Shown here: positions 15,287 to 62,000 of the stretch, piece after piece
Position numbering within the stretch: the stretch's first letter is position 1
How the letters are laid out: every line of letters begins with the position of its first letter
Source: a candidate division WOR-3 bacterium
GTDB taxonomy: Bacteria; Hydrothermota; 32-111
Assembly (NCBI GenBank): GCA_037481815.1
Contig: JBBFKX010000002.1
Coordinates: 15,300-79,299, forward strand
Length of the DNA stretch: 64,000 bases
Reading direction: 5' to 3'
Notes under the pieces: generated by a model
Told to the model about the DNA's origin: nothing
Database searches by the model: none
Seen by the model: only the letters and a program-made list of their open reading frames with translations
Program-made: the position numbers and the translations under genes

Positions 15287-15341
15287 ATCCCCCTCCTGAC
15301 AGCGAAATAACCATCAAATTTTTTATAATAATTAGAAAAAT

Positions 15342-29791: not shown

Positions 29792-29793
29792 TT

Positions 29794-38248: not shown

Positions 38249-38403
38249 AAGATGGTGTATATGAATGGAGAAATTGTTGTTGATGTGAATAAAAAGATCA
38301 ATAAACCTAAAAGTAAAATTATGATAATAAGAGGGAGTAACCAGTATTTTTTCTTTTTCAACAAAAATTTCATCAAAGATTTCAGAGTTTTTAAAAATCC
38401 CAT

Positions 38404-38778
38404 TTAGAACGGCTCCTCAATATCAAATTCATCTTCCACATATTTGTTGTAATACGAACTCTCTTGTTTTTTTATATTCTTATAAAACCTTTTATCCATA
38501 ATGTAAAGTATCGGCTTAAACATTAAAAAAATTATATAATAGATTATAACTACTATCAATACTGTAAAAAGAAATGCAACAAACAAAAAGAGTTTATCCA
38601 ACAATTTTTTAGCAATAAATAATTTTTTCGGTAAAAATATTAAAAATAAGAGTGAAACCACTGTTAATGAAAAGAAAAAAATTTTCAGTAATCCAAATTT
38701 TCTAAAGATAAAGGTTAACATTAAAAATATTAAAACTACCTGAACGGATTTTAACCTTTCAATCATTCCTTTTTTCAA
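38404..38778 (-). CDS. small hypothetical membrane protein (3 predicted TM helices)
   Basis: 124 aa, hydrophobic, last gene of the long minus-strand gene string; no family recalled. Confidence 0.35.
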   Translation of the reverse strand: MKKGMIERLKSVQVVLIFLMLTFIFRKFGLLKIFFFSLTVVSLLFLIFLPKKLFIAKKLLDKLFLFVAFLFTVLIVVIIYYIIFLMFKPILYIMDKRFYKNIKKQESSYYNKYVEDEFDIEEPF

Positions 38779-43518: not shown

Positions 43519-43519
43519 A

Positions 43520-44545: not shown

Positions 44546-45486
44546 ATAACACCTCTAAAATATTGTATCGTTTTAGAGAGCCCTAATTCAATGGGAACAC
44601 CATTCTTGTATCTTAAAACTTTCCTTGCAAGTGTTAGATCAGGTTTTCTCTTAACAGGGTCATCAGCAGGCAAATCTTTAAAAACTATCTTTGATTTTGA
44701 TTTTGTTAATTTTATAATCGTTTGTGCTAAATCGATAATCTTGATCTCTTCATCTGAACCAAGGTTTACAGGGCCTGTAAAGTTAGGTTCACTATCGCTT
44801 AATTTTATAATACCCTCTATAAGATCATCTATATAACAAAAAGATCTTGTTTGTGTCCCATCTCCATAAACAGTTATATCACGATTTCCAAGGGCCTGGA
44901 CGATAAAATTTGAAACAACTCTACCATCATCTTTTGACATATATTCTCCATAGGTGTTGAATATTCTACAAACTTTTACTTCAATATTAAAATTTCTATA
45001 ATATTCAAAAGTTAAAGTTTCAGCCACCCTTTTTCCTTCATCATAACAAGCCCTAACACCTATAGGGTTTACATTCCCCCAATAATTTTCATTCTGTGGG
45101 TGCACCAGTGGATCTCCGTATATTTCAGATGTTGAACTTAGAATAAACTTTGAACCAGTTTTTTTTGCAACCTCAAGCATATTCATTGTTCCTATAAAAT
45201 TTGTTTTCAAAGTTTCCAGAGGATATTTTTGATAAAATTTTGGGGAAGCCATTGAAGCAAGATGAAAAATTTTTTTTATGTCCCTGTATTCTATCTGTAT
45301 TTTTTTAGAAACATCTTTTTTAAAAAATTCAAAATTTTTAAACTTTTTTAAAATTTTTAAATTTTCAAGTGAACCAGAGGAAAGGTTATCAATTCCTAAA
45401 ACTCTCTCTCCTCTTTTCAACAGGTATAACGAAAGATTTGTTCCAATAAAACCAGCACAACCAGTTATCAAGTTTATTTTTACCAT
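44542..45486 (-). CDS. NAD-dependent nucleotide-sugar epimerase/dehydratase (UDP-glucuronate decarboxylase-like)
   Basis: ITGCAGFIG motif, Y-x3-K (YDEGKR); 314 aa; adjacent to a UDP-sugar 6-dehydrogenase. Confidence 0.65.
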   Translation of the reverse strand: MVKINLITGCAGFIGTNLSLYLLKRGERVLGIDNLSSGSLENLKILKKFKNFEFFKKDVSKKIQIEYRDIKKIFHLASMASPKFYQKYPLETLKTNFIGTMNMLEVAKKTGSKFILSSTSEIYGDPLVHPQNENYWGNVNPIGVRACYDEGKRVAETLTFEYYRNFNIEVKVCRIFNTYGEYMSKDDGRVVSNFIVQALGNRDITVYGDGTQTRSFCYIDDLIEGIIKLSDSEPNFTGPVNLGSDEEIKIIDLAQTIIKLTKSKSKIVFKDLPADDPVKRKPDLTLARKVLRYKNGVPIELGLSKTIQYFRGVI

Positions 45487-46802
45487 CCGATCCCTTTATA
45501 GTTTTTCGAACTTTTCTTTTCAGGGAAAATGTTCACAAGATCTACGACTATAAGTTCCTTTTTGTTATATGAGTTCAACAATTCTCTGTAAGAGTTGTCT
45601 CTATTGGCAACAACAACGAGTTCTACATTATCCAGAAATTTTTGTGGATCCTCTACAAGAATTTCAGAAATATGTTTTATCTCTCTTTCAATATATTCTT
45701 TATTGGAACCAACCAGTTTTGAAAGTTTTACATTTTCATCATATATTAAAACATTTTTACCTTTACCTAAAAGTTTCTCAACAAGAACAACCGATGGAGA
45801 TTCTCTTAAATCATCTGTCCCACTTTTAAATGTTATACCCATCACTCCAATTCTATTTACCTTTTCTTTTAAGATTAAATCAAAAGCCCAATCGATATGA
45901 AGATCGTTGGAATCCATTATATTTTCGATTATAGGTAAAGATAATCCATTCCTTTTGGATTCATAAGACAAAGCTCTTACATCCTTCGGTAAACATGAAC
46001 CACCGAATGCGAATCCTGGTTTTAAATAATATTCAGATATATTTAGTTTTCTATCCATAAGGAAAAGTTCCATCACTTCTCTGCTATCGATCCCTTTCTT
46101 TTTACATATTCTTGCGATTTCATTAGCGAAACCAACTTTTAACCCATGAAAGGTGTTGTTAACATATTTAAGCATTTCAGCAGTTTTTATAGATGTTACG
46201 ATAAATGGCGCTTCAAGAAATGAATACATCTGTCTTATTATCCTTTCACTCGCCTCACATTCACAACCTATAAGAGTATAAGGAGGGTTATAGAAATCGT
46301 TTACAGCATTACCTTCCCTTAAGAATTCAGGATTTGACAGAACATCAAAATCTTTTTTCCTTTTCTTTCCACTTATACTCTGGACTATCTCGGCATACTT
46401 ATCAACGGTTCCGGGCATCGATGTTGACCTTATGAGTATAAGGTACTCTCTTTCAAAATTTTCCTTTTTCCTCAAAGCATCACCTATCTGTTGGGCAGTT
46501 TTAAAAATGTATGAAAGATCAACCTCTCCAGTTTCTGAAGACGGAGTTCCTACACAGATCAATGCGATATTGGTATTCTTAACCGCATACTCAAAATCAT
46601 CTGTTGCCTCAAGATTCCCGGCTTTTACAACTTTTGATACTATCTCATTGATATAGGGTTCAACTATAGGGGATCTTCCATTGTTGACTTCAGAGATTTT
46701 TATATCGTTTATCTCAACCCCTATAACTTTGTATCCCTGCTCTGCCAAACATGCAGCGGATATTATACCAACATAACCCAAACCAAAAACAGCGATCTTC
46801 AT
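45480..46802 (-). CDS. nucleotide-sugar 6-dehydrogenase (UDP-glucose dehydrogenase-like)
   Basis: N-terminal KIAVFGLGYVG, catalytic Cys region GFAFGGSCLPKD; 440 aa. Confidence 0.8.
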   Translation of the reverse strand: MKIAVFGLGYVGIISAACLAEQGYKVIGVEINDIKISEVNNGRSPIVEPYINEIVSKVVKAGNLEATDDFEYAVKNTNIALICVGTPSSETGEVDLSYIFKTAQQIGDALRKKENFEREYLILIRSTSMPGTVDKYAEIVQSISGKKRKKDFDVLSNPEFLREGNAVNDFYNPPYTLIGCECEASERIIRQMYSFLEAPFIVTSIKTAEMLKYVNNTFHGLKVGFANEIARICKKKGIDSREVMELFLMDRKLNISEYYLKPGFAFGGSCLPKDVRALSYESKRNGLSLPIIENIMDSNDLHIDWAFDLILKEKVNRIGVMGITFKSGTDDLRESPSVVLVEKLLGKGKNVLIYDENVKLSKLVGSNKEYIEREIKHISEILVEDPQKFLDNVELVVVANRDNSYRELLNSYNKKELIVVDLVNIFPEKKSSKNYKGIGW

Positions 46803-48967
46803 TTTTCACCTTCTTTTGTATGATAATGATAATAATAATGATAATAGTAATATTTCCCATAGAAACTTTCGGTGTTAACATTGTTAAAAACAAAACCAAC
46901 TAATGGTATATTAAGATTTTTCAACAATTTTTTTGTATAGTGTAACTCTCTTTTTTTCGCTTTTTTAAATTGAACAACCCAGAGTAAACCATCCGATAAC
47001 CTTGAAATTATTGTAGGGTCTGCAACCGAAAGTATCGGAGAAGTATCAACTATGATAAAATCAAACATCCCTTTTAACTGTTCAAAAATTTTTCTTGTCA
47101 ATTTCCCTTCAAGTAGTTCAGTTGAATGAGATGTCCTTTCACCATAAGGTATTATCCATAGATTCTCAATTCCACTTGGATATATAACCTTTTCAACACT
47201 TGTTTCCCCTTTCAGTATGTTTGTAAAACCTTTATCAAAACTTAAATTAAACATTTTATCGATCACAGGTCTTCTCAAATCTCCATCTATCAAAAGAACC
47301 TTTTTGTCCAGTTGTGCTAAAACGATGCTAAGGTTTGATGCGGTAGTTGATTTCCCTTCACCTTTTGTGGCTGATGATACAACGATTATTTGGGGAGTTT
47401 TTGTTCCTTCGGAAAGATATAAAAGGTTTGTTCGAAGAATTTTATACGATTCAACAATCGGTGAATTTTCTGGAACTTCAGTTAAAAGTTTACTCCTTTC
47501 ACTAACCATCGTTTTCCCATTTTTGAGTTTAATCAAAGGGATATTACCAATTATATTAACTTTTAATTCTCTTTCAATTTCATCTATATCCTTTACAGAA
47601 TCGTCTATATATTCTTTAATAAACACTGCACCTATTCCCAGTATTATGGCAAGAAAGAATCCAAAAAGATAATTTCTGTTTTTCTTTGGTAAAACTGGAT
47701 TTTTATTCAACACAGGTTTATCTATTATCTTTACAGAACCAAGTTTACCAGCTTCTGCCACTTTTGCCTCTTCAAATTTTCCTTTCAACATCAGATAAAG
47801 TTCCTCTGAAACTTTTTTATTTCTTTCAAGTCGTGCAAGCATAAGTTCCTGATATGGGATCTTTTTCATCTTATCTTCAAAAATTTTTATCACATTGTTT
47901 AACGCTTCAATCATCGACTCCTTAACTTTTATTTCAAGTTGAACCGATACGATTTCGTCCATAAGACTTTTTGAATAATCCAAAGGATTGGTTGCGAAAT
48001 ATTTTTCAGTCAAAGATTTTTTACTGTTGGTCACTATGTTGTTTTTCAAATTTTCAACCCTTATCTTTATCTCCTTCATTTTCGGATGTGATGTGTCGTA
48101 TCCAAGTGATAGAAAATATGCATAGGATGACTGTAAAGAATCGAGTTCCTTCATAGATCTTTCAAGGAAGGGATTAAGTTCATTCAAAAATCCTTCAGCC
48201 ATCATTTTGTTCGACTGGGAAAGGTTCTCTTTTAGATAATTCAATTTTGCAAGAAGCATCTCCCTTTCAACATAGTTCTGTTTTTTCTGACCTTCAAAAT
48301 TTGATATCATATCAACAAGTTTTGAGGTCTCTTCGGTGAGTTCGATAATAGAATTATTCTCTTTAAACTTTTTTAAATTTTCTTCATTTATTTGTAGATC
48401 ATTTTCTATTTTAGTTAACTGTTCTTCGAGAAATTTTCTCACCTCACTCAATTCTCCCCTAGTCATTTCAAGGTTAATATTGTAATACTGCTCAACTATG
48501 ATTTTTGTTATATAGAAAGCATCCTCTGGACTCTTATCATTATAGATTATTTTCAAAATATCAGTATCCTTAACCGGGATCACTGTGAGATTTTTTTTGA
48601 GATATGATATCCTTGCTTCTTTTTCTTTAAATTTACCTATATAAAGAGAGTCAAGATAACCACTGTTTGATATAACATTTTCGACTCTTTCAAAAAGAGT
48701 TCTGGATTGAACCATTTCTATGTGGTTATTTATAACAGTTTGTCTTGGATTTAGATCCCTTATAGGTAAAAATGAAAGTCCTTTATCACTTGTTTCAATT
48801 AGTATCAGTGAAGTAGATTGATAGGTTGGTTTTGTAATTTTCGTTATCAAAAAAACAAGAACGATCACAATAAAAAATGTTGTTAAAAACAAAATTTTAT
48901 TCTCGAGTAAAAGAAAAAAATATGTCTTTAACTCTTTTCCTTCCTCTTCTATAACCCTCTCCGGCAT
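46799..48967 (-). CDS. polysaccharide co-polymerase / tyrosine autokinase (Wzc-like BY-kinase)
   Basis: Wzz-like N-terminal TM plus coiled coil, second TM, Walker A SSATKGEGKST, C-terminal Tyr-rich tail YGKYYYYHYYYHYH. Confidence 0.75.
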   Translation of the reverse strand: MPERVIEEEGKELKTYFFLLLENKILFLTTFFIVIVLVFLITKITKPTYQSTSLILIETSDKGLSFLPIRDLNPRQTVINNHIEMVQSRTLFERVENVISNSGYLDSLYIGKFKEKEARISYLKKNLTVIPVKDTDILKIIYNDKSPEDAFYITKIIVEQYYNINLEMTRGELSEVRKFLEEQLTKIENDLQINEENLKKFKENNSIIELTEETSKLVDMISNFEGQKKQNYVEREMLLAKLNYLKENLSQSNKMMAEGFLNELNPFLERSMKELDSLQSSYAYFLSLGYDTSHPKMKEIKIRVENLKNNIVTNSKKSLTEKYFATNPLDYSKSLMDEIVSVQLEIKVKESMIEALNNVIKIFEDKMKKIPYQELMLARLERNKKVSEELYLMLKGKFEEAKVAEAGKLGSVKIIDKPVLNKNPVLPKKNRNYLFGFFLAIILGIGAVFIKEYIDDSVKDIDEIERELKVNIIGNIPLIKLKNGKTMVSERSKLLTEVPENSPIVESYKILRTNLLYLSEGTKTPQIIVVSSATKGEGKSTTASNLSIVLAQLDKKVLLIDGDLRRPVIDKMFNLSFDKGFTNILKGETSVEKVIYPSGIENLWIIPYGERTSHSTELLEGKLTRKIFEQLKGMFDFIIVDTSPILSVADPTIISRLSDGLLWVVQFKKAKKRELHYTKKLLKNLNIPLVGFVFNNVNTESFYGKYYYYHYYYHYHTKEGEK

Positions 48968-48976
48968 AAAAACTCC

Positions 48977-50284
48977 TTAAAGTTTAATGATATTCTTGCT
49001 CTTAACCTTTTTAAAACCATTTCTCGTATCAAATATGATCTTTGCATTTTTTGCAACCATTTCATAATCAAAAGAAGAGTGGTCTGTCAGAAGAATAACA
49101 CAATCAAATTTTCTTATTTCATTCTCTTTAATACTCTTTAAAACTTTTACCTTCTTATGTTCACCCTTTTCGTCTATAAAACTGTTAACCATTGGATCAT
49201 AAACCGTTACCAAAGCTCCCATCTCTTTCAACAGATGGTATACCTCAAGAGCAGGCGATTCTCTTAGGTCATCAATATCTTTTTTATAAGTTATCCCCAT
49301 CAACAAAATTTTTGAACCATTTAGTGTTTTTTTATATTTATTTAAAATCTCTGTAACCTTATTCAAAACAAATCTCGGCATGTTTGAATTTACATCTGAA
49401 GCAAGTTCAATAAATCTGTTGTAGTAATCATACATCTTTGCTTTCCAGGAAAGATACATAGGATCGAGAGGTATACAATGACCACCGATTCCAGGTCCTG
49501 GATAAAATGGCATAAAACCAAAAGGTTTTGAAGATGCTGCCTCTATTACATTCCAGATATCTATTCCCATCCTATGACACATGATTGCAAGTTCGTTTAC
49601 AAGTCCTATATTCACTGCTCTGAACGTATTTTCCAGTAATTTCACCATTTCAGCTTCCTCAGGGGAATTAACCGTTATCACCTTCTCTATAACCTGTTCA
49701 TACAACATTTTTGTGATCAGTGTATCTTTATCAGTTATTCCTCCAACAACTTTTGGAGTATTTTTTGTATTGTATCTGGGATTACCTGGATCAACCCTTT
49801 CTGGAGAAAATGCAACAAAAAAATCTTTTCCCACTTTATAACCAAAATTTGAAACTCTTTCAGCAATAAGTTCTCTTGTAGTTCCTGGGTAGGTAGTAGA
49901 TTCCAGAACTATAAGCATATCTTTATGAAGATATTTAACTATCTCATCCATTGCACCGGTGATATATGATACATCTGGATCTTTACTTTTTTGAAGTGGA
50001 GTCGGAACGGCTATCAAAACACAATCAGATTTTTTTACAACAGAATAATCGGTAGTGGGTAAAAATCTTTTGTTAACAACATCTTTAACATCTTTATTAT
50101 CAACATCAAGAATATACGACTCGCCCTTTTTTAAAAGTTCAACTTTCTCTCTCAATAGATCTATTCCATAAACAAAAAAACCTGCTTTTGCGAATTCAAC
50201 AGCAAGCGGTAAACCAACATAACCAAGACCAACTACCGAGATTACAGATTTTTTATCTTTAACCTTTTGAAGTAGAACACTCAT
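48977..50284 (-). CDS. UDP-N-acetylhexosamine 6-dehydrogenase (WecC/TviB/WbpA-like)
   Basis: N-terminal ISVVGLGYVGLPLA, catalytic Cys region GPGIGGHCIPLDP; 435 aa. Confidence 0.8.
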   Translation of the reverse strand: MSVLLQKVKDKKSVISVVGLGYVGLPLAVEFAKAGFFVYGIDLLREKVELLKKGESYILDVDNKDVKDVVNKRFLPTTDYSVVKKSDCVLIAVPTPLQKSKDPDVSYITGAMDEIVKYLHKDMLIVLESTTYPGTTRELIAERVSNFGYKVGKDFFVAFSPERVDPGNPRYNTKNTPKVVGGITDKDTLITKMLYEQVIEKVITVNSPEEAEMVKLLENTFRAVNIGLVNELAIMCHRMGIDIWNVIEAASSKPFGFMPFYPGPGIGGHCIPLDPMYLSWKAKMYDYYNRFIELASDVNSNMPRFVLNKVTEILNKYKKTLNGSKILLMGITYKKDIDDLRESPALEVYHLLKEMGALVTVYDPMVNSFIDEKGEHKKVKVLKSIKENEIRKFDCVILLTDHSSFDYEMVAKNAKIIFDTRNGFKKVKSKNIIKL

Positions 50285-50300
50285 GAAAATCCTCCTTTAT

Positions 50301-50915
50301 TTATATTACAAGTAAAGATATTATATAATCCAAATACTCATCTATGTCAATAGAATTAACTCTTTCCATCTGGTAAGGCTCAAAATCTACTGGAATCTTT
50401 CTATTCTTTAAAAAATCTTTTACATTAAATATATAAAATGCACCGTTCTGCCTATATATATTTTTGTAAGGAATTAGAATTAAACCATCTTCCGATGAAA
50501 AGAACATGTGTTCTTTGTTTTCAATTTTTTCTACAGAGATTACAGTTTTTTTCTTTTCTGAAAACAAAAATAGAGCTTCTTTTAAATCATTTTTGCTTCT
50601 CAAAGGTGATGTCGGTTGAAGTAAAATTATAACATCATCATTTTTCATTTTATATTTTTTGATCATATATAAAATCAATAGATCCATAGTAGTAGTCGCT
50701 TTTGCGAGTCGTTTAGGCCTTAAATCAAAAACGACTTTTGAATGCATTAAAGAGCCCATCCTTTTGTCTGAAGAAACTATAATTTTATCAAAAATTTCAG
50801 ATTCAATGGCAAAATCTAAGGTTATTTCAAAAAGAGTTTTTCCTGAAATCCTCACAAAATTTTTATTTTTAACCCTTCTGCTTTCACTTTTAGCAGGTAT
50901 TAAAGCGTAAATCAT
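50301..50915 (-). CDS. acylneuraminate (nonulosonate) cytidylyltransferase-family protein
   Basis: N-terminal ALIPAKSESRRVKNKN resembles the IPAR-x-S-x-R/KN motif of CMP-sugar synthetases; 204 aa. Confidence 0.65.
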   Translation of the reverse strand: MIYALIPAKSESRRVKNKNFVRISGKTLFEITLDFAIESEIFDKIIVSSDKRMGSLMHSKVVFDLRPKRLAKATTTMDLLILYMIKKYKMKNDDVIILLQPTSPLRSKNDLKEALFLFSEKKKTVISVEKIENKEHMFFSSEDGLILIPYKNIYRQNGAFYIFNVKDFLKNRKIPVDFEPYQMERVNSIDIDEYLDYIISLLVI

Positions 50916-50917
50916 TT

Positions 50918-53900
50918 TTATCCAAAGAATATATCTCCAAAAGTTTCCTTTTCAATTTTTTCATCTCTTTTTTCTAACTCTTGATTTTTTTCTTCAAACC
51001 ATCTTTCTAAAGACACTCTTTCCATCTTTTCTTTTTCCATATCCTCTTTTTCTTTCTTAGAGATATCCGGTATTCTATGTTCTTCAGTCTTTCTTTCCCC
51101 AGAAATTTCATGTTGCATCTTTTCCTGTAAGGTCTCACTCATCCTATCCTTTTCCTCATTCAATTTTTTAATCTCTTCTTCAAGATTTTTGATCACATTA
51201 TCTTTTTGTTCATAATCAACTTTCTTTGAAGAAACTTCATGTTTTAACCTGTTATTTTCCTTAATGAGATTTTCGATCTTCATTTTTAAATCTTTTATGG
51301 TTTCATCCTTTTTATTGATTTCGACAGATAGATCCTTTTGGTATAGAGATTCATTATCTTTTGCAAGTTCTATTTTTTCATGTAAGATCTTCAACTGCTG
51401 CTTTTTTTCTTCAATCTCATTCAAAGTCTTTTCTTTTTCCAAATCATATTTTTCTTTTTCAACTTTTGAGATTTCAACTTCTTTCTTAATCTGTTCATAC
51501 ATACCTTTCATCTTTTCGATTTCATTTTTTATCTGCTCATACTGTTTTTGCATCTGTTTTTCTATTCCAGCAATTTTGATCATCTTTTGTGTTGTTTCGG
51601 TAAACTCTTTTTTAAGATTCTCAGTTTTTACTTGAAGATCAATATATTCCTGCTGAAGAGATTGCCTGCTTTCCGTTATTTTAGCGATTTCTGACTTTTT
51701 ACCATTTATTTCCTCATTTATTGTAAAGAGCTCTTTTCTCATATTCAAAAGAAGTTTTTCTTTTTCAGCCAGTTCCATCTCAATGTTCTTTTTGATATTT
51801 TCAATTTTTTCAAGACCTAAAACGGCAGCCAGTTTTCTTTCCTGATTTTTTCTTAAAATTATTATTTCGTCCAACTTATTCTTTATCTTTAATAGTTGAT
51901 TTAAACTCATCTTGGTTTCTATTATTTGCGGAGAATCTCCTTCAACCGGTTTGAATTCTCTTATATTTGGAAAATCTGTTTCAATCTTTTGAATCTTTTC
52001 TTCAAGTTCACCAAGATCGATTCTCTTTTCATTTATAGTTGTGTTCAGTCTTATTTCTTCTTTCTTCAAAGATTCTATTTCATTTTCAAGAGATTCCTTT
52101 TGTAACTGAAGATCTTCGATATCCATCATCGACATTTTAAGCGTGTTCTGTATCTCTTCAAGTTTTTCATTTTCCTGTTTTATCCTATTTCCTATCTCTT
52201 TTGATTCTTTTTCCTTTTCAAGCAACCATCTGGTTATCTCATCCTTATCATTTTTTAAAGAAACGAGTTCGTTGTTAAGTTCTATGATCTCTTCATCGAT
52301 CCGATTCTTCTCTTTTTCAAGATCTTCTATAACACCTGATGTCTCTTTGATTCTTTTTTGAAAATTATTTTCAAATTCATTGAGTTCTCTCTTCTTTTCT
52401 TCTATAATCTTTTCCAGATTCTCCTTTTCTTTTAAAACCTGCTCAGTTTCTTTTTTTGAAAGTTGAAGTCTGTTTTCATTTTCATCGAGCAATTCTTTCA
52501 ATTCTTTTTCTTTTATCTGGCATTCTTTTTCCTTTTGACTTAACTCTTGTTCGAACTCCAGCAGTACCTTTTTCAACTCTTCTATTTTCAAATTTTTTGC
52601 TTCGATTTCTCTATCCAGTTCATTTTTTTGATTATTTATTTTTTCGAGTTCGAGTAAAAGTTGTTTTCTCTCCTGTTCCTTTCCGTTGAAATTTTCAAGT
52701 ATCATTTCAGCATTAACTTTTAGCTGCTCAAGTTCCTGCTTATCCTCTTCTATCTGTGAAGTTAGTTTTTCTTTCTCTTTCCTCAATTTTAACACTTCAT
52801 CAAAAATATTTTCCTTTTCTCTTTTTAACTCCTCTATTTCTCCAGCAAGTCCTTTTTTCTGTTTTTCAAACTCGTTCATCTCGTTCCTTATTTCAGTATA
52901 TCTATCTGAAAAACCTGAATACTCCCTCATCAATTCATCCAGTTTTTTCTCTTCCTTTTTGATGGAATTCACAAGTTGGAGTAGTTCTCCATTTTTTGCC
53001 TTTATTTCCTTTTCAAGGGTATCTTTTCGTTTTTCATCATTTTTTATTATTCCTGAAAGTTCATTGAAGTATGATTCTTTAGTTTTTATTTCTTTTTCCT
53101 TTTCATTAAGTTTTTCAGTCAAAATGTTATATTCCAAATCTAATTTTTTGAGCGTTTGGCTTTTTTCATCGATTTCATCTTCTATTTTTTTAATATTGTT
53201 TTTCAATCGCTCTTCAGTTTTTTCAAGATCATCTATAACCTTTCTTGTTTTTTGATTTTCTTCTTTTAAATCATCTCTTTCTTTTTCGTATTGTTTTATG
53301 GTCCTTTTCAAATCGTTTATCTTTTCTGTCAATTCGAGTTCATCACCAAGAGAAACTCCCATGCCGGATTCGATTTTTTCGAGATATTTTTTCTTATCAT
53401 TTATCTTTTGTTCTAAAAGATTTAAACTGTTTTCATCCTCTTCAAATTTTTTCTTTAAACTTGAATATCTTTTTTCAAGATTTTTTAATTGCTCGGTTTT
53501 CTCCTTTTCCTCTTCTTTCAAAGATTCAAGATTTTTGCTGACCTTTTCAAAAGCAGTTTTGTTCTCTTCTAGTTCTCGTCTTAAAATTTCATTTTTCCTT
53601 TCTTCCTCTTCATTTTCCTTTCGTAGTTCAGAGAGTTTCTTCTCTTCCAGATCATATTTCGCTTTCAACTCTTCAAAGTCCTGTAATGTACCATTTTTTT
53701 CTTTTCTTATATTTTCAAGTTCTTTTAATATTTTTTCCTTTTCTCTCTTTCTTTCCTCAATATCTATTTCAAGATTAGTTATCTCCATTTCAATTGATTC
53801 TTTCTTTTTATTCAAATCATCAACTGTTTTCTCTTTTTCCTTCGTTAACCTTTCGATCTCTTTTTTTAATTCATCTAATCTTTTTTCCCTTTCATTTATT

Positions 53901-54850
53901 TCTTTTGTTAAATTTTTTAAAAGTGTTGTTTGTTCATCGATTTTTTTTCTAAGTTCTTTTTCTTCTATTGACTTCTTCATAAGGTTGGAAACTATCCTGT
54001 TTAACTCCTCATTCTTCTGAATGATTTCCCTTTCCAATTTTTCAAAATCAACTCTTCCTTCAATATCTTTTGATTTTATATGCTCAACGGTTTCAACTGT
54101 TTCGTTTATTTCCTCTCTATTTTCCTCTTTTATCTGTTCTTTCAATTCTTGTTCGACATAGTTTTTTTCTTCTAAAAACTCTTCTTTTATATTCTCTTTC
54201 TCTATTTCTTCTTCTTTTTTCTCGCTTTCAACTTCAAGATCAGTGATATCTATTTCCTGCAGTTTTTCAACAAGGTCCTTGGCAACATTCTCTTCATTTT
54301 TTTTATCAAGATCTATCTCGTTGATATATTCTGTTCTATACCCTGTTTCCTCTGATGATAATTCCTCTTTTAGATTGTCTATAGGAATGGTTTCTTTTTT
54401 CTGTTCGTCAGAAATTATTTCTTCTTTCTTTTCAGGTTCTTCAATTTTTTCAAATGTTTCATCCTTCTGTAAGAAACTCTCTTTTTCATCTGTTTCTATT
54501 TTTTCTTCCACTGTTTCAATTTTTTCAAACACATCAAGAAGATCTCCTATACTTTCCTCATGGGGGGGCTCCATAATGGTTTCATCTTTGGTTGAATCAA
54601 CCTTTTGTTCTGTAACAACAGTTTCTGAATCAAAAGTATCAAGAATATCTGAAAGATCAGAAACTATATCTTCTGTTATATTCTTATCATCTTCAAGGGA
54701 TTCTTCTTTCGTTTCTTCATTCTTACTAATTTCTTTTGATGCTACTTTTATACCTTTTTTCTTTTTTAAAACTACTTTTTTTTGTTCTTCACTCTTTTTT
54801 ATTTCATTTTCATCTCTTTCTGATTCATCCTTTTTTCTAAAAAACATCAT
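50918..54850 (-). CDS. giant coiled-coil protein (1310 aa, Lys/Glu-rich, no recognisable catalytic domain)
   Basis: Continuous heptad-like K/E/L/I periodicity over about 1000 aa, acidic low-complexity N-terminal ~250 aa; start 9 nt after the xerD-like stop; antisense frames are low-complexity S/F artefacts. Confidence 0.7.
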   Translation of the reverse strand: MMFFRKKDESERDENEIKKSEEQKKVVLKKKKGIKVASKEISKNEETKEESLEDDKNITEDIVSDLSDILDTFDSETVVTEQKVDSTKDETIMEPPHEESIGDLLDVFEKIETVEEKIETDEKESFLQKDETFEKIEEPEKKEEIISDEQKKETIPIDNLKEELSSEETGYRTEYINEIDLDKKNEENVAKDLVEKLQEIDITDLEVESEKKEEEIEKENIKEEFLEEKNYVEQELKEQIKEENREEINETVETVEHIKSKDIEGRVDFEKLEREIIQKNEELNRIVSNLMKKSIEEKELRKKIDEQTTLLKNLTKEINEREKRLDELKKEIERLTKEKEKTVDDLNKKKESIEMEITNLEIDIEERKREKEKILKELENIRKEKNGTLQDFEELKAKYDLEEKKLSELRKENEEEERKNEILRRELEENKTAFEKVSKNLESLKEEEKEKTEQLKNLEKRYSSLKKKFEEDENSLNLLEQKINDKKKYLEKIESGMGVSLGDELELTEKINDLKRTIKQYEKERDDLKEENQKTRKVIDDLEKTEERLKNNIKKIEDEIDEKSQTLKKLDLEYNILTEKLNEKEKEIKTKESYFNELSGIIKNDEKRKDTLEKEIKAKNGELLQLVNSIKKEEKKLDELMREYSGFSDRYTEIRNEMNEFEKQKKGLAGEIEELKREKENIFDEVLKLRKEKEKLTSQIEEDKQELEQLKVNAEMILENFNGKEQERKQLLLELEKINNQKNELDREIEAKNLKIEELKKVLLEFEQELSQKEKECQIKEKELKELLDENENRLQLSKKETEQVLKEKENLEKIIEEKKRELNEFENNFQKRIKETSGVIEDLEKEKNRIDEEIIELNNELVSLKNDKDEITRWLLEKEKESKEIGNRIKQENEKLEEIQNTLKMSMMDIEDLQLQKESLENEIESLKKEEIRLNTTINEKRIDLGELEEKIQKIETDFPNIREFKPVEGDSPQIIETKMSLNQLLKIKNKLDEIIILRKNQERKLAAVLGLEKIENIKKNIEMELAEKEKLLLNMRKELFTINEEINGKKSEIAKITESRQSLQQEYIDLQVKTENLKKEFTETTQKMIKIAGIEKQMQKQYEQIKNEIEKMKGMYEQIKKEVEISKVEKEKYDLEKEKTLNEIEEKKQQLKILHEKIELAKDNESLYQKDLSVEINKKDETIKDLKMKIENLIKENNRLKHEVSSKKVDYEQKDNVIKNLEEEIKKLNEEKDRMSETLQEKMQHEISGERKTEEHRIPDISKKEKEDMEKEKMERVSLERWFEEKNQELEKRDEKIEKETFGDIFFG

Positions 54851-54858
54851 CCCCCCTT

Positions 54859-55752
54859 TTAACTTCTTGGATGGAATCTATCGTAAATCTTCGTAAGTTG
54901 TTTTTTATTAACATGAGTATATATCTCAGTCGTCATAATGCTTGAGTGTCCCAACATTTCCTGCACACTTCTCAGATCCGCTCCTCCCTCTATCAGATGT
55001 GTTGCAAAAGAATGTCTGAGAATATGAGGGTGCAATCTCTTTTGAATACCCAAATGTTTTACTCTTTTTTTCAAAATGTTCCATACATCCATTCTTGTTA
55101 GTTTTTTCCCTGTTCTGCTCAAAAACAAATATTCACTTTTATATTTTTCAAAAAAACTTCTATAATTCCTCAAATATTCTTGAATACTGTTTAAAGCTAT
55201 TCGATTCAAAGGAACAATTCTTTCCTTCATTCTCTTCCCTAAAACCTTTATAAAACCTTCTTCATAAAATACTGATTCGATTTTTAAATTTATAACCTCG
55301 GAAACTCTTAATCCCGCACCATACATGGTCTCCAAAATCGCTTTATCCCTTTTATCAAAAGGATCATCGCTATTTATGGAATTCAATATCAAGGTTGTTT
55401 CTTCAAGTGTTAGATAATCAGGCAAATTTTTTGAAATTTTTGGTGGAGATATATTTTCTGTCGGGTCTTTATCTATGATCTTTTCCCTATAGATAAAACT
55501 ATAAAAATTTTTCAAAGAGGTCAATTTTCTAGAAAGTGTTCTTCCATTTAAACCTAACATCGAGAGTTCCTTTAAAAAAAATTCAATAATGTTTTCATCA
55601 GCTTCAAAAACATCTTTTTTAAAATTTTCACAAAACTGTATATACTGGGCTATATCATTAAGATAAGCGTCGACAGTCAGATCAGAGCATCCCTTTTCAG
55701 ATATAAGAAAATTTTTAAAATCCGATAAAACATTGTTTTTATAAGACATCAA
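54859..55752 (-). CDS. tyrosine site-specific recombinase, XerC/XerD-like
   Basis: 297 aa; C-terminal catalytic box HILRHSFATHLIEGGADLRSVQEMLGHSSIMTTEIYTHV with the catalytic Tyr. Confidence 0.85.
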   Translation of the reverse strand: MMSYKNNVLSDFKNFLISEKGCSDLTVDAYLNDIAQYIQFCENFKKDVFEADENIIEFFLKELSMLGLNGRTLSRKLTSLKNFYSFIYREKIIDKDPTENISPPKISKNLPDYLTLEETTLILNSINSDDPFDKRDKAILETMYGAGLRVSEVINLKIESVFYEEGFIKVLGKRMKERIVPLNRIALNSIQEYLRNYRSFFEKYKSEYLFLSRTGKKLTRMDVWNILKKRVKHLGIQKRLHPHILRHSFATHLIEGGADLRSVQEMLGHSSIMTTEIYTHVNKKQLTKIYDRFHPRS

Positions 55753-57112
55753 AAGAATCTCCCTTAAATGGTATTATTACATTCTCATACCCATTTTCTT
55801 TTAAAGCATCTTTTAAAGAGTTTATCTGTTTTTCTTCTCCATGAACCAGGTATATTTCTTTTTTAGGGTTTATATTTTTAACATAGTTGATAAGGTCGTT
55901 TCTATCAGCATGTGCTGAATATTCATTCATGATAACAACTTCAGCTTTCAATCTATACTCTTCACCAAAAATTTTTACTTTTTCTTCTTTTTCAACTATT
56001 TTCCTACCAAGTGTATTCGATGCCATAAAACCTGTGATCAAAATTGTATTTGAAGGATTTTCAATATTATTTTTAAGATGATGCAAAATTCTGCCTGCCT
56101 CACACATACCACTTGCTGAAATGATTATCTTTGATTCTCTCATGCTATTTAACTTCTTTGATTCCTCAACACCCTGAATGTAATATAGTCCATCAAAATT
56201 AAAGGGATCTTTGTTAAAGTTAAAAAGATTCATCATATCACTATCATAACATTCGGGATGTTCCTTGAACACTTTGGTTATATTAACAGTCAAAGGCGAA
56301 TCAACAAAAATGTTCATCCCTAAGTCATAACCTTCTTCTTTTAACATAAAAAGATCATACAAAAGTTCCTGGGTTCTTCCAACAGAAAATGCTGGGACGA
56401 TCAGATTTCCCTTCTTTCTTTTTACACTTTCAATAACTTTCTTTAAATTTTCTCTACTCTCTCTTATATCAGGATGTGTTCTGTCTCCATAGGTTGATTC
56501 CATAATCAAAAAATCTACATCTTTTATTATATCAGGATTTCTTATGATCGGAAGATGTTTCCTCCCCAGATCACCTGTAAAAAGCATCTTCTGCCCATCC
56601 TTTTCAAAAAGAATTTGAGATGAACCCAAAATGTGTCCTGCATCTAAAAATGTGACTTTAAGATCTTTATCGATTTCCAGTTCAGAGTAATAATTGATCC
56701 CTTTAAAATATTTAAAAGAAAGTTCGACATCTTTTACTGTATAGATAGGTTGTTTATTTTCGGGATTTTTGTTTTTTTTGTTTAAAAATTCTATATCTTT
56801 CTCATGAATATGCGCACTATCAAGAAGCATCGGTTTTAAAAGATCAACCGTTGCATAGGTAGACACGATTTCCGAATCATATCCTTGTTTCACAAGATTG
56901 GGTATGTTTCCAGAATGATCTATGTGAGCGTGGGATAATAAAACCATATTCAAAGATTTTGGATCAAAAGGAAAATTTAAATTTGCAATTTCACTTTCCT
57001 TTCTCCTTCCCTGAAAAAGGCCACATTCAACAAGAATTCTCTTTCGATCAGTTTCGAGAAGGAACTTGGAACCTGTAACCTCTTTTGTTGCACCAAAGAA
57101 TGTAATCTTCAT
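55739..57112 (-). CDS. beta-CASP family metallo-beta-lactamase-fold ribonuclease-like protein
   Basis: 457 aa; MBL HxHxDH motif (SHAHIDHSG) followed by a beta-CASP region; 3' end overlaps the xerD-like start by 14 nt. Confidence 0.7.
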   Translation of the reverse strand: MKITFFGATKEVTGSKFLLETDRKRILVECGLFQGRRKESEIANLNFPFDPKSLNMVLLSHAHIDHSGNIPNLVKQGYDSEIVSTYATVDLLKPMLLDSAHIHEKDIEFLNKKNKNPENKQPIYTVKDVELSFKYFKGINYYSELEIDKDLKVTFLDAGHILGSSQILFEKDGQKMLFTGDLGRKHLPIIRNPDIIKDVDFLIMESTYGDRTHPDIRESRENLKKVIESVKRKKGNLIVPAFSVGRTQELLYDLFMLKEEGYDLGMNIFVDSPLTVNITKVFKEHPECYDSDMMNLFNFNKDPFNFDGLYYIQGVEESKKLNSMRESKIIISASGMCEAGRILHHLKNNIENPSNTILITGFMASNTLGRKIVEKEEKVKIFGEEYRLKAEVVIMNEYSAHADRNDLINYVKNINPKKEIYLVHGEEKQINSLKDALKENGYENVIIPFKGDSFDVL

Positions 57113-57113
57113 T

Positions 57114-57749
57114 TTAAATCCTGATATTAAAATCTTTCAGTACATCACTAAATTTTTTCGCTTCACCAAAAAATCCATGACCTGGAAAAATTTTTGTTTC
57201 CTTATTTATATTTGAAAATATTTTTTTTATCGATCCGATTATACTTTTATAATCACCTCCAAAAAGATCTGTCCTTCCTATTCCCTCTGTAAAAATTAGA
57301 TCACCAGAAATTATATTGTTTCCGATCTTTAAAGTTATTGATCCCGGGGTATGTCCCGGAGTCGAAAGGACATTTATTATTTCTTGATCAAAACAAAACG
57401 AATAACCTTCATCTAAGATGACTTCGGGTTGTGGAGAGATGTAATTATTTCCAATATAGTAGGACATATTCAATTCAGGGTCCAGTAAAAAATCGTAATC
57501 TTTAACTCCAACACATATTGGTATGTCGAAATAATTCTTCAAATAAAGATTGCCTGAAATATGATCATAATGACCATGAGTGTTCACTATTTTTTCAGGA
57601 ATCAAGCCATTACCTTTTATGTAATCAACCACCATCTTTCCATCAGCAGGATCAATAATAATGGTTTTTTTATCCTTTGATATAAGAAAATAGGTGTTTG
57701 TTTCAAGTTCACCATTTACAAGACAATCTATTTTTAAATTTGATTCCAT
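57114..57749 (-). CDS. metallo-beta-lactamase-fold hydrolase (glyoxalase II-like)
   Basis: 211 aa; THGHYDHISG metal-binding motif; 1-nt gap to the downstream beta-CASP gene. Confidence 0.75.
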   Translation of the reverse strand: MESNLKIDCLVNGELETNTYFLISKDKKTIIIDPADGKMVVDYIKGNGLIPEKIVNTHGHYDHISGNLYLKNYFDIPICVGVKDYDFLLDPELNMSYYIGNNYISPQPEVILDEGYSFCFDQEIINVLSTPGHTPGSITLKIGNNIISGDLIFTEGIGRTDLFGGDYKSIIGSIKKIFSNINKETKIFPGHGFFGEAKKFSDVLKDFNIRI

Positions 57750-57833
57750 AATTTATAAGTTTAACAAAAATTCCCAATAAATCAATATAATATTATATAT
57801 TTACTTTTCAAAATTTATTGATAATATTACACT

Positions 57834-59069
57834 ATGCTGAATCTAAGAAAAAGTATTGATTATTACAAATATGTTTTTCAAAGAATAGATAAAAATGCTT
57901 ATTTTTATCTATCCGGGAACCTCCTTTCAGGTTTTGGATTTGCTGCTTTTTCACTTCTTTTTAACATCTATTTAAAAAGTTTAAACATAGGTGAATCTAA
58001 AATCGGGAACCTTTTATCAATCGGAACGTTTACAACAGCGATACTCATCTTACCAGCAGCGTATATTGTAAAAAGAACGGATTTGAAAAAATTTTTTGTT
58101 TTATCTCCCCTTTTAACTGTTGTGGGGTATTTGATAGCCATTCAAAGTTCTACTTTTACTTTTAGAATTATTGGATTTATCCTCGCTGGAATTGCAGGTG
58201 CTTTCACATCAGTTATCGGTGGTCCTTTTATTATGTCGGTTTCAGATGAAAAAACAAGGACTTTTTTATTTTCGTTGAGCCAGGCAACAATGTTGACCGC
58301 GGGGATAAGTGGAAACCTGATATCAGGTTTTTTGCCAAACATCATCAAAAAGTTTGGCTTATCAGATGTCCTATCTTTAAAATATGCGATATTTTTCCAT
58401 CTTTTTTTCGTTTTTTTATCATTATATTTTTTTTCAAAAATAAAAACAAAAAGACTTTACAGTTCAACTTTTAAAGACAAAATCAAATTTAATACAAATC
58501 TAAAGATTCTCTTTTATTTAATTCTACCCCCTCTAATAATAGGTCTTGGGGCAGGTATGACTATTCCTTTTTTGAATATCTATTTTAAAACAATATTTCA
58601 TCTTTCATCATCACAGATAGGTATAATTTTTTCGATAGCCCAAATGTTAACAATTTTAGGTTCGTTAATTTCTCCATTGATCGCCAGAAGACTCGGACTC
58701 ATAAACACAATAATCATTACACAACTCATTTCTATTCCTTTTCTATTCTTTTTGGGTTTCTCTTCATATTTTCCTCTCGTTCTTATATCATTTTTTTTAA
58801 GAAACGCTTTAATGAACATGGCTTCCCCTCTCTCTTCAAATTTTTCTTTAGAAATAGTTGACAAAGAGGATAGACCTTTTACCAGTGGACTACTTTCACT
58901 GGCATGGCTTGCTTCATGGGGACTCACAGCAAACTTTGGAGGGTATTTTATAGAAAAAAGTGGTTATAAGATTCCTTTCACATTTACCATCTTATGTTAT
59001 TTCACATCTTCAATACTTTATCTGTTACTCCTAAAACCACTCGAAAAAAGTTTTAAAACCTCAAAATAA
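57834..59069 (+). CDS. MFS transporter
   Basis: 411 aa, about 12 TM helices in a 6+6 arrangement. Confidence 0.7.
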   Translation: MLNLRKSIDYYKYVFQRIDKNAYFYLSGNLLSGFGFAAFSLLFNIYLKSLNIGESKIGNLLSIGTFTTAILILPAAYIVKRTDLKKFFVLSPLLTVVGYLIAIQSSTFTFRIIGFILAGIAGAFTSVIGGPFIMSVSDEKTRTFLFSLSQATMLTAGISGNLISGFLPNIIKKFGLSDVLSLKYAIFFHLFFVFLSLYFFSKIKTKRLYSSTFKDKIKFNTNLKILFYLILPPLIIGLGAGMTIPFLNIYFKTIFHLSSSQIGIIFSIAQMLTILGSLISPLIARRLGLINTIIITQLISIPFLFFLGFSSYFPLVLISFFLRNALMNMASPLSSNFSLEIVDKEDRPFTSGLLSLAWLASWGLTANFGGYFIEKSGYKIPFTFTILCYFTSSILYLLLLKPLEKSFKTSK

Positions 59070-62000
59070 ATTTTATACCACTGTTGAAATTACCCTGTTC
59101 ATCCCTTTCGGTAATAAAACTTGAATTCTTTCCAAATCGATATTCGATTTTAAACTGGTCTTTAGAAAAAGAAAAAATATCATGTGTATATGATAGATAC
59201 AATTTTTTACCTATATACTTACCAACAGAAAGTTTCGCACTTTTATCTTTTTCTAAAAGTGTTGTATTCAAATCAAGTTGATCAACCCCTATCGATGAGG
59301 ATATAAGATTCAAATATCTGTTTCTAAGATATATTTGTAAAGCTTTTTCTGGAAGAGTTCTTGTAAAATCATTAAAATTTGTAATATTGTTTAAAGTAGT
59401 ATTAAAACTCAAAACACTCAAAATATTTTCTATCGACATCAAAGGATCTGAACTTACTATTATTTGAGGATTTGAAGCACTTCCTTTTACATTTATACTT
59501 ATTCTCGCTTCTTTTCTTTCATCTCCTTCGCTGAACAAAACATCTGTACTTGCAAGAATATCCAAGAATGGATCGATGTCTTTGGAACTCTGTTGAAATG
59601 TAAAAATTCCTCGTTCTATTAAAAATCTTTTCTCAAGATAAAAATATGTTCCTCTTATTACTTCAGCGTTGCCTGTTATACTGTATTTTAAGTTTTCCTT
59701 TTTAAGTTTAACCTCACCTTTCAGTTCAACATCAACAAAATTGTTTTTAAGCCATAAGTTCCCTTCGGATATGAACAGAAGATCAAGGTTCGTTTTATAT
59801 CCCGATTGTGGTGACAATCCACTTTCCTGAGATTTTATAAAGAATGGGAAATTGGAAACACCTTCGTTGATAAAAATTCTGCCAGTAGTGGTTACCTGAG
59901 TTTGATCACCCAATATTTTCAACGAACATTTTGCAAAAGCATCAACATAATCTAAACCATTTGAATGAACACCATCTGCTAAAATATCGAAAGAATAGTT
60001 ATCCAGAGTCCAGTTTTTCTTTTTTACTCTTCCTGTAAGTTTAACCTTACCCTTTTCTGTGAATCCATTCAATTCTATGTCTTTTAGATAATTCCCATAA
60101 CATACACCTTGCCCTGTGACATTTCTAATTTCGGTTCCAAGTTTTACAATATAAATGTTTGAAGAGTCAACAAAAACATTTCCATAGATTTGTGGATCAG
60201 ATAAAGTCCCGGAAATTTTACCTTCAAGTTCTAATCCTTTTTTTGTTTCAACTGTGAATACATTTTTCAAGGGAACGAAATATTTCCCATCAATATTATT
60301 CAATTTGACATTTAAGTTAAGTTCGGAGTCGAAAATTTTCGAAAAATCTTTGATCGAAATTTCCCCAAACATGTAGGAAACATTTTCATCGTTGTATAAA
60401 TTAAAATAATTTAATTTTAATAATTTATTTTCAAGTTCACAATTGAAATCGATAGAATCTATTTTGAGTTCATAGTAATTTATATCCTTAACTTTTCCCG
60501 AAAAATTGACACTTTTTTTATAATCAGAAATAAGCCCTTTTCCATAAATTAAGGCATCACCAGATATTTCAAAACCTGTAAAATATCTTGTAAGCAAAAG
60601 ATTTTTATCCATAACTTCAAAGTCAAAATCAAACATGTTTTGTGAATTCATCAGATCAAGATGAACATATCCCTCTTTACCTTCAAGGGAAACACCTTTT
60701 ATGGTCAAATCATTTCTGGAGATTTTTATATCAATAGGTTTTGTTAACCTTAGAAAATCAACATCTGTTTTGAGTTCAAGTTTATCTATATTCCCTGAAA
60801 ATTCATAATCCTTTTCTTTAAACTCACCGTTAAGTCCCAAACTAATGGTTATTAGTTCTGAAACAGCATCCAGATCAAGATAAACTTTATCATTTTCCTT
60901 TTTTATTTCAGCGTAAAGGATGTCAAGATTCTTTTTAAATATTTTTCCATTCAAAGCATAAAAATTACCCACAAGATTTTTCAATGAATTATCAGCAAAA
61001 ACAAACTTTGAGTTGAAAGATAGAAAACTTATAAAACTGTTATTCAAGTTAAAATCCTTCACCACAAAAGAATTTTCACAAGATATATACCCTTTTTTAC
61101 CTCTCAGATTTATCCAGCCATCTGCATTTCCACTCAGAGATACTTTCTTATCAATTTCGGTAATGAAACTGAGCGGGAATTTATCGAACGTAACTGTTAG
61201 ATTTTCCCTTTGGTTCCCGAATCTGCCATCAACACACATAAATCCCTGGTTTAGATATAAATTGAGATTTTTTGCAAATATTTCATCTTTTTTTAAAGTA
61301 AAAATTCCATCCAAAAGCAAACCATCAAACTCTCCATAAGAACCTTTTACTGAATCCAGATTTACGGTTATGTATGTTAAAAAATCTGTTTTAAAATTCA
61401 CATTTCCGTAAAATCTATTTTTTTTCAAATCCACATTACTTATAAAACTTTCAAGAGATAAAGAATCAAATTTTAATAAAAATTCCCCATTTAACCCTTT
61501 GTCAAAATCGATGAAACCTTTCGCACTCAAACATAGATTTTTATCATTACATTCAATTTTTTTAAAGTTCAAAGTATCAAATCTGAAAAATATTTCACCC
61601 TTTAAATCTTTAAATGAGAAGCTGTTGTAGCCAATCCTTTTTATATCAAAACTAAAATCCGCATTTTCAAGAGATGGTGAAAAAAGACAACTCGCTGAAA
61701 TTTTCCCATCGATATTAAACTTTTTTCTTTCAAATTCAAATTTTCCGTTCGAAATTTTTGTTTCAAAATTTTTAACAAACAAAAAGGTATCCTTTAATAT
61801 CAAACTGAACTCAGAATTGATATTATCAGAGATGATCGAATTGTTGAGGATTATTGAGTCCATTAGAAAATAAGATATTTCTCCTTCAATCTCTTTCACT
61901 TTAAAAGTATCAACAGTTAAATCAAGAAATTTATAGTAGGCAAAAATCAGGTCTTTTTTTATATTTATCGATGACAAAAACTTCGAATTTGTGAAAATGT

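Follow-up and report, generated by a model that had tools for sequence, protein, structure and literature searches.

A lineage-specific coiled-coil-rich protein of candidate division WOR-3 bacteria and its possible role as a cytoplasmic scaffold

Machinery for polarity, motility or shape is organised in some bacteria by large coiled-coil proteins of the cytoplasm, such as AglZ and FrzS of Myxococcus and HMW2 of Mycoplasma, and the rod of the Streptomyces proteins Scy and FilP is built on a non-heptad 51-residue repeat. The Ccrp proteins of Helicobacter are large coiled-coil proteins of the same scaffold type (PMC7002697). Bacterial intermediate filament (IF)-like coiled-coil-rich proteins form an operational class, with at least 80 amino acids of coiled coil and an unstructured head and tail, and weak matches to SMC are common in bacterial coiled-coil-rich proteins (PMC7002697). 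The protein described here, called the coiled-coil (CC) protein, is encoded by a candidate division WOR-3 bacterium within a 64,000-nucleotide stretch of DNA (the window; assembly GCA_037481815.1, contig JBBFKX010000002.1, positions 15,300 to 79,299). Scy, at about 1300 amino acids, is similar to it in size.

The CC protein has a head-rod-tail layout with two rods, of about 694 and about 235 residues, split by a conserved proline loop, and it displays no enzymatic, nucleotide-binding, membrane or secretion features. With a probability of about 0.55 it is a lineage-specific, cytoplasmic and non-enzymatic structural protein of the bacterial coiled-coil-rich (IF-like) scaffold or tether kind.

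Head, rods and tail of the CC protein

The gene and the parts of the protein it encodes are as follows.

50918..54850, minus strand: CC gene, complete open reading frame (ORF) including the stop codon, 1310 amino acids from the first ATG and 1309 from the second (direct reading of the frame, intact orthologues)
54059..54850, minus strand: head, residues 1-264, acidic, without heptads and presumed disordered, about 250-330 amino acids in relatives (composition, alignment, z=1.2)
54737..54850, minus strand: N-terminal motif, residues 1-38, MFF[RK]K..DE ... [IV][VT]LKKKK.I[KR].AS (family alignment, conservation profile)
54629..54673, minus strand: acidic amphipathic motif 1, residues 60-74 (EDIVSDLSDILDTFD), kept in 6/6 full-length members
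54515..54556, minus strand: acidic amphipathic motif 2, residues 99-112 (ESIGDLLDVFEKIE) (family alignment)
51977..54058, minus strand: rod 1, residues 265-958, canonical heptads, about 103 nm (heptad statistics, conservation profile, AlphaFold2 helix breaks at the knuckles)
51905..51976, minus strand: non-heptad proline loop, residues 959-982 (DFPNIREFKPVEGDSPQIIETKMS) (alignment, conservation, heptad test; modelled by AlphaFold2 as a loop at 960-973)
51539..51976, minus strand: hub, residues 959-1104 (alignment, conservation profile, HMMER, AlphaFold2)
51116..51820, minus strand: rod 2, residues 1011-1245, heptads, about 35 nm, of varying length among relatives (z=7.8, family alignment)
50951..51115, minus strand: tail linker, residues 1246-1300, charged and non-heptad, with Pro (z=0.4, low-confidence break in AlphaFold2)
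50921..50950, minus strand: C-terminal peptide KETFGDIFFG, residues 1301-1310 (alignment, conservation profile)

A first-pass annotation, made from the window's letters, had described a Lys/Glu-rich ORF of 1310 amino acids, about half of them charged, in which an acidic N-terminal region precedes a long heptad-like stretch and the sequence ends in a short hydrophobic tail, FGDIFFG. Each of these points is borne out. K, R, D and E together make up 49.4% of the protein (E 22.5%, K 17.4%, L 10.4%, I 8.9%, P 0.6%, and one Cys), the head carries a net charge of about -48 across residues 51-250, and the C-terminus reads as listed above. Periodicity was scored as the hydrophobic occupancy of the a and d positions in the best register, compared with composition-preserving shuffles. 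For residues 265-958 the occupancy is 0.686 as against 0.467±0.013 in the shuffles (z=16.4), and residues 1011-1245 give z=7.8, both far beyond chance. The dominant period in the spectrum of the protein is exactly 3.50 residues, a single register is unbroken from about residue 330 to about 770 (about 440 residues), and every register change in the rods is a +4 shift, i.e., a stutter. Heptads are at chance level in the head, in the segment 959-1010 and in the tail from 1246 to 1310. The heptad rod thus accounts for about 930 of the 1310 residues (about 71%), and the earlier wording "almost purely coiled-coil" fits this part of the protein, but not the head, the 50-residue segment 959-1010 or the last 65 residues.

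The a position is occupied by Ile in 30% and Leu in 25% of cases, the d position by Leu in 41% and Ile in 17%, and the g position by Glu in 43%, a pattern that usually goes with two-stranded coiled coils. At 0.1485 nm per residue, rod 1 would span about 103 nm and rod 2 about 35 nm. An ER/K-type single α-helix was considered for the rods and rejected because a hydrophobic seam is present, the a/d occupancy being 0.69-0.70 as against about 0.1 at other positions. Single α-helix character could apply only to parts of the head (about 200-260) and of the tail (1265-1300).

A conservation profile drawn from an alignment of seven family members is not that of a featureless rod. The N-terminal motif consists of a hydrophobic tip and a basic patch. 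The acidic amphipathic head motifs, the second of which has a core reading GDLLDVFEKIE in the family alignment, are present in 3-5 copies in distant relatives. At the start of rod 1 the motif NEELN.IVS.(L/I)MKKS.EEK is conserved. The conserved knuckles of rod 1 are NEELNRIVSNLMKKS at residues 280-294 and four that contain glycine: ESGMG at residues 494-498, EYSGFSDRY at 643-651 (family form EYSGFSDRY.EI.NEM.E[FY]EK.K), NAEMILENFNGKE at 713-725 (family form NAEMIL.NFNGKE.ERK) and KETSGV at 835-840 (GVSAA in distant members). The proline loop has the family form DFPNI[RK]E[FY]KP...PQ. It opens the hub, which also takes in the N-terminal end of rod 2 and is the most conserved part of the family, about 140 amino acids long and almost invariant; residues 981-1020 are 95-97% identical among proteins that are about 40% identical overall. 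The hub contains LNQLLKIKNKLDEIIILRKNQERKLAAVLG (in the stretch LNQLLKIKNKLDEIIILRKNQERKLAAVLG.EK.ENIKKNIE) and TETTQKM.KIA.IEKQ.Q (TETTQKMIKIA.IEKQMQ). Around residues 981-1036 hydrophobic residues are also found outside the a and d positions (0.27-0.40), which is compatible with a wider interface, e.g., a four-helix association. Conservation is lowest, and length varies, in the remainder of the head and at residues 741-835 and 1120-1300.

The C-terminus has the family consensus [DG]-D-I-[FL]-F-G-COOH and is kept in 8/8 of the C-termini seen, while an end of the form D-D-I-[FL]-F-G was found on no other ORF among the sequences compared. The possibility that the FFG tail is a membrane-targeting element, in analogy with the tail of MinD, was rejected because the residues that precede it are acidic rather than basic, which would hardly suit such a role.

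AlphaFold2 was run on single sequences, for residues 255-1310 and for the hub (935-1130). The model of residues 255-1310 is all-helical and breaks exactly at the knuckles, at the proline loop and at AVLGL. The hub is modelled as a loop at 960-973 followed by one continuous helix from 974 to 1129, with a predicted local distance difference test score (pLDDT) of 87. Since this is a single continuous helix, the model depicts the hub as a strongly constrained coiled-coil segment and not as a globular domain. A Foldseek search of the long model against the PDB gave no match at E<=0.001, only generic helical hairpins. When the protein was compared with itself using hhalign no discrete internal repeat was found; the off-diagonal alignments lie at unrelated offsets and are generic coiled-coil self-similarity, not a repeated domain.

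Relatives and tests against known families

One genome per GTDB species was scanned with the neighbouring XerD as the query. This gave three relatives, two hot-spring metagenome-assembled genomes (MAGs) of candidate division WOR-3 (XerD 88-90% identical) and 'TA06 bacterium 32_111' (about 72-73%). In all three an intact CC orthologue is found directly after xerD; these are 1312, 1310 and 1292 amino acids long, and their identity to the window protein is 87, 86 and 66%, respectively. Metagenome contigs were also scanned. Automatic peptide patterns had yielded no loci in an earlier scan, while a hand-made back-translated pattern of the invariant NQERKLAAVLG gave four: two full-length members (1447 and 1368 amino acids, about 42% identical to the window protein, one of them from DNA of 47% GC), one partial gene and another copy of the TA06 locus. 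A library-wide HMMER search with residues 111-1310 against 1.84 billion cluster representatives picked up the hub as the only matching region, and gave one true relative, a 466-amino-acid contig-end fragment annotated 'hypothetical protein' in MAG GCA_028698175.1. The second match of this search was a spurious repeat protein and was discarded. Neither the window protein nor XerD nor the orthologues gave a match in exact-sequence look-ups.

Five further independent assemblies, which are MAGs of WOR-3/TA06 or metagenome contigs, thus carry an intact orthologue of 1292-1447 amino acids, and there are two more copies that are partial. Across the same genome pairs the identities are 66/42/42% for the CC protein, 73/51/49% for XerD, 59/39/39% for the cytidylyltransferase encoded on the other side of the CC gene and 67/42% for the metallo-β-lactamase (MBL) hydrolase of the same gene run. 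Judged from these values, purifying constraint on the CC gene appears comparable to that on the neighbouring enzymes. All members have a net charge of -80 to -104 and at most one Cys. The features of the protein persist in relatives with 44-47% GC, and are therefore not a by-product of AT-rich DNA. By these searches the family appears to be tiny, unannotated and specific to a small group of uncultured thermophilic WOR-3 bacteria.

The earlier claim that the protein has no catalytic domain and no confident family match holds, as scans against Pfam, NCBIfam and the PDB were all non-significant. Pfam gave only sub-threshold generic coiled-coil models for the CC protein (APG6_N, 17.8 of 45 bits), and CENP-F_leu_zip was sub-threshold in three relatives. 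Pfam Filament (PF00038) and crescentin-related models had no match at E<=0.01 in any member, and the CC rod of about 980 amino acids compares with about 310-350 for an IF-type rod. DivIVA, EzrA, ZapB, GpsB, SepF and similar proteins gave no Pfam or NCBIfam match with the whole protein, pieces of it or its relatives. Pfam scans and hydropathy detected no signal peptide, transmembrane segment, SLH domain, RTX or other secretion repeats; there is no hydrophobic segment, the maximum 19-residue Kyte-Doolittle mean being 0.5-0.8 across the members. A DNA-binding domain was not detected in the Pfam scans either. Profile searches of PDB sequences with the whole family and with the hub gave nothing significant. 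The best match was the coiled coil of the guanine nucleotide exchange factor (GEF) Rabin8 (E=0.13, 15.2 bits); a Rabin8/Sec2-type GEF coiled coil was rejected for the hub, as this E-value is at chance level and Pfam Sec2p does not appear even with the threshold relaxed to E<=10.

With about 930 heptad residues and no other domain above cut-off, the protein lies well beyond 80 residues of coiled coil, and residues 1-264 and 1246-1310 lack heptads, are charged and variable in length, and are probably disordered. The assignment of the first-pass annotation to a scaffold-like coiled-coil-rich class can therefore be kept, the head-rod-tail layout fitting the operational description (PMC7002697). 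However, this class is operational and not a homologous family, and the CC protein is a new family within a known kind.

Genomic context and rival explanations

The features closest to the CC gene are listed here.

57784..57811, minus strand: best promoter-like site, upstream of the MBL gene (consensus match only)
57114-57749, minus strand: MBL hydrolase, part of the same-strand gene run
55739-57112, minus strand: beta-CASP RNase, overlapping xerD by 14 nucleotides
54859..55752, minus strand: xerD, directly upstream of the CC gene, context only (TIGR02225, 341.7 bits, cut-off 329.6)
54851..54858, minus strand: 8-nucleotide intergenic 'aagggggg', Shine-Dalgarno-like, between the xerD stop and ATGATG (read from the sequence)
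50301..50915, minus strand: CMP-sugar cytidylyltransferase (PseF/NeuA-like), 2 nucleotides downstream of the CC gene (Pfam/NCBIfam)

The stop codon of xerD occupies 54859-54861 and the CC gene has its first ATG at 54850-54848, which leaves the 8 nucleotides and agrees with the earlier statement that the start codon lies 9 nucleotides past the xerD stop. The second ATG (54847) is probably the true start, because the gene opens with ATGATG, the Shine-Dalgarno-like G-run touches the first ATG (54847-54850, minus strand), and three more distant orthologues start with MFF. Several Ser/Phe-rich plus-strand ORFs lie antisense to the gene (e.g., 52686-53255, 53298-54020 and 54243-54896); these are shadow ORFs that mirror the GAA/AAA/AAG-rich coding strand. 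It is in the CC gene region that AT skew (-0.43) and GC skew (-0.36) reach their strongest values in the window, and the gene holds no DNA tandem repeats.

The gene is part of a tightly packed same-strand run, with 8 nucleotides upstream and 2 downstream. The promoter-like site is a possible start of a long polycistronic unit that includes it, and a consensus scan gave no terminator-like site on the minus strand until about 46.5 kb. The cytidylyltransferase gene is the first of a polysaccharide/nonulosonic-acid cluster, which continues with two UDP-sugar dehydrogenases, a Wzz/BY-kinase, an epimerase, a GFO oxidoreductase, a DegT aminotransferase, a CapD-like protein and a carbamoyltransferase, with NeuB nearby. 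The top NCBIfam match of the beta-CASP gene is a 'type VII CRISPR Cas14' model, at 420 bits; as this falls short of the 800-bit cut-off, the protein is an ordinary CPSF/RNase-J-like nuclease and not Cas14.

Elsewhere the window, which has about 30% GC throughout, contains two large surface-polysaccharide regions (37229-50915 and 10794-17218). These hold NeuB, the PseF/NeuA-like cytidylyltransferase, two UDP-sugar dehydrogenases, DegT, CapD-like protein, carbamoyltransferase, glycosyltransferases and a Wzm/Wzt ABC exporter, and their Wzz/BY-kinase has a Tyr/His-rich C-terminus (YYYYHYYYHYH). A TamB-like protein of 1142 amino acids is encoded beside an Omp85/POTRA (TamA/BamA-like) protein at 59053-63953 (minus strand), consistent with a diderm envelope. 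A Ras/Arf-family small GTPase gene (29204-29791, minus strand) and a Roadblock/LC7 gene (29794-30291, minus strand) are adjacent, in a layout that matches an MglA/MglB polarity module, and adjoin a gene for a methyl-accepting chemotaxis protein (27532-29202). Four ORFs have no Pfam family at E<=1e-5: 635-3217 (minus strand), 3918-6194 (minus strand), 22522-23841 (plus strand) and 34913-36619 (minus strand), of 860, 758, 439 and 568 amino acids. No tRNA genes and no Rfam families at gathering threshold were found in the 64 kb.

The position of the gene might suggest a partnership with XerD (and FtsK), in which the CC protein would serve chromosome dimer resolution or terminus positioning as a long linker from the terminus to the division site. 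In E. coli the MatP-ZapB-ZapA linkage joins the terminus region to the division site. The short distance to xerD, with no terminator-like site between, would fit such a partnership, and so would the adjacency of the two genes, which is kept in 5/5 other loci with a visible upstream side, down to an XerD identity of 49-51%. However, these relatives share the gene order of an entire block of 8-9 genes (MBL hydrolase, beta-CASP RNase, xerD, CC gene, cytidylyltransferase, two UDP-sugar dehydrogenases, Wzz/BY-kinase, etc.). Pairs of genes with unrelated functions are therefore conserved at least as well as the xerD-CC pair, and the adjacency is no specific functional signal. XerD loci outside the clade, from other phyla, lack a neighbour of this long, charged kind, and the Pfam result for DNA-binding domains also speaks against this explanation, which is unlikely. 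Of the proposal in the first-pass annotation, co-expression stands as plausible, equally so with xerD and with the sugar-nucleotide enzymes, while the tie to chromosome resolution is unsupported, the cytidylyltransferase gene being just as close; the conservation check it had called for found the adjacency kept, but along with the whole gene order. The gene most likely follows xerD because a small genome is tightly packed, and not because the two share a pathway. The downstream side of the gene might suggest a fibre of the envelope or cell surface that is linked to the polysaccharide cluster, needs no signal peptide for its export (e.g., by a type I system) and is comparable to S-layer or spacer rods. 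The strong acidity, the near absence of Cys, the location directly upstream of the cluster and the nearby TamA/TamB are in line with this. Such a fibre is nevertheless quite improbable, given the absence of the export and surface features listed in the previous section, and no type I ABC, membrane fusion protein or TolC genes are found among the Pfam-annotated window ORFs of at least 150 amino acids (all but three ORFs of this size were scanned); K/E-rich canonical heptads with short motifs in flexible termini would moreover be typical of cytoplasmic scaffolds.

The GTPase and Roadblock genes at 29204-30291, together with the rank of Rabin8 as the hub's top match in the PDB profile search, could indicate an effector or scaffold of an MglA-like GTPase/Roadblock (MglB-like) polarity module, or a Sec2/Rabin8-like coiled-coil GEF. 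AglZ and FrzS, which are long coiled-coil proteins, would be the comparison. This is very improbable, as a match of 15 bits is chance for a coiled coil and Sec2p is not detected at E<=10, the genes are unlinked, about 21 kb away and in a different transcription unit, and no receiver or other MglA-related domain is present. Two explanations are refuted, a degenerate ATPase of the SMC/Rad50 type and an artefact in which several genes were joined into one. The first-pass annotation had raised both, as an SMC protein with missed heads and as a fusion produced by sequencing errors, and sub-threshold NCBIfam matches to SMC and Rad50 do exist. However, the SMC model TIGR02168 matches at positions 231-522 of 1181, coiled-coil arm positions only, with 84.5 bits against a cut-off of 567.35, and the Rad50 models reach 21-27 bits against cut-offs of 700-1087. 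Walker A (G/AxxxxGK[ST]) is absent in 7/7 members, the Foldseek search is empty at E<=0.001, an SMC/Rad50-type hinge has no Pfam or NCBIfam match, and with at most one Cys there is no CxxC zinc hook. The sole long non-heptad break (959-1010) splits the rod asymmetrically, into 694 and 235 residues, so a fold-back hairpin of equal arms does not fit. A fusion is contradicted by the single intact frame in five other assemblies and by the lack of tandem DNA repeats.

Possible function and comparison with known systems

In the favoured explanation, a cytoplasmic scaffold or tether, the rods would pair as a parallel two-stranded coiled coil of about 140 nm, in which the four glycine-containing knuckles may be built-in flexible or recognition points. 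The hub (959-1104) may be a site of rod-rod association for higher-order assembly, or the binding site of a conserved partner. The N-terminal MFFRKK...LKKKKGIK patch and the 2-5 acidic amphipathic D-L-x-D-[IM]-L-D-x-[FI] motifs of the head are candidate docking motifs for the recruitment of other proteins, and the terminal D-D-I-[FL]-F-G could be a docking peptide, in principle like the tips of SSB and FtsZ, whose C-termini are acidic-aromatic. From a rod, a hub and docking ends of this putative kind it would follow that the protein is a long spacer or organiser that fixes where in the cell its partners sit or how far apart they are kept. The oligomer state, the docking roles, the scaffold function in the cytoplasm and any cytoskeletal function are what we infer from these features.

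Several points weigh against this explanation. The oligomer state and strand orientation are read from residue statistics only, and the docking role of the termini is drawn by analogy from general knowledge. The long AlphaFold2 model made from a single sequence is poor (pLDDT 61, predicted template modelling score 0.28), and because of this low overall confidence the helix packing in it is untrustworthy. The host organism is also uncultured. A more far-reaching form makes the CC protein the main cytoskeletal or positional organiser of this WOR-3 lineage, either as an IF-like polymer or as a tether of 140 nm. The hub would serve rod-rod assembly, and the terminal peptides would dock proteins of division or of the chromosome (e.g., FtsZ/FtsA, FtsK-XerD or SSB-type partners). 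The protein would in this way couple chromosome dimer resolution physically to the division site, and would correspond to the MatP-ZapB type of linkage while having evolved independently of it. This we regard as distinctly unlikely.

If the scaffold explanation is true, the CC protein would be one more independently evolved giant coiled-coil organiser in bacteria. We know of no cell-biology data for the candidate phylum WOR-3. The almost invariant hub of 140 amino acids in an otherwise fast-evolving rod and the conserved terminal peptides are concrete experimental handles. The practical value is limited, with few genomes of uncultured thermophiles, no detectable relatives elsewhere and a context that points to no pathway; the family will not surprise a specialist, and opens no long-standing question.

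Known C-terminal docking peptides include DDDIPF of SSB and D-I-P-x-F-L of FtsZ. The CC C-terminus may be compared with these tips in having a conserved acidic-then-aromatic end after a flexible charged linker, but it differs in ending with Gly after two aromatic/aliphatic residues and in lacking Pro. No homology to AglZ, FrzS, HMW2 or Ccrp was detected, and a receiver domain is absent. The arms of SMC, Rad50 and MukB resemble the CC protein in having hundreds of heptad residues with conserved interruptions; profile matches in the arm region are weak, and the top non-significant Foldseek matches include SMC arm fragments. In contrast to these ATPases, the CC protein has no ATPase heads, hinge, zinc hook or Walker A, and its breaks are asymmetric. 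The closest likeness in layout is to Scy and FilP of Streptomyces and crescentin of Caulobacter, which likewise lack catalytic domains and are laid out as an unstructured head, an interrupted coiled-coil rod of great length and a tail, and for proteins of this type sub-threshold SMC matches are typical (PMC7002697). There is no sequence relationship to them, Pfam Filament and related models being silent. Unlike the 51-residue repeat of Scy and FilP, its rod consists of canonical heptads with a period of 3.50 and one register over about 440 residues, and it is about three times longer than the rod of IF proteins or crescentin.

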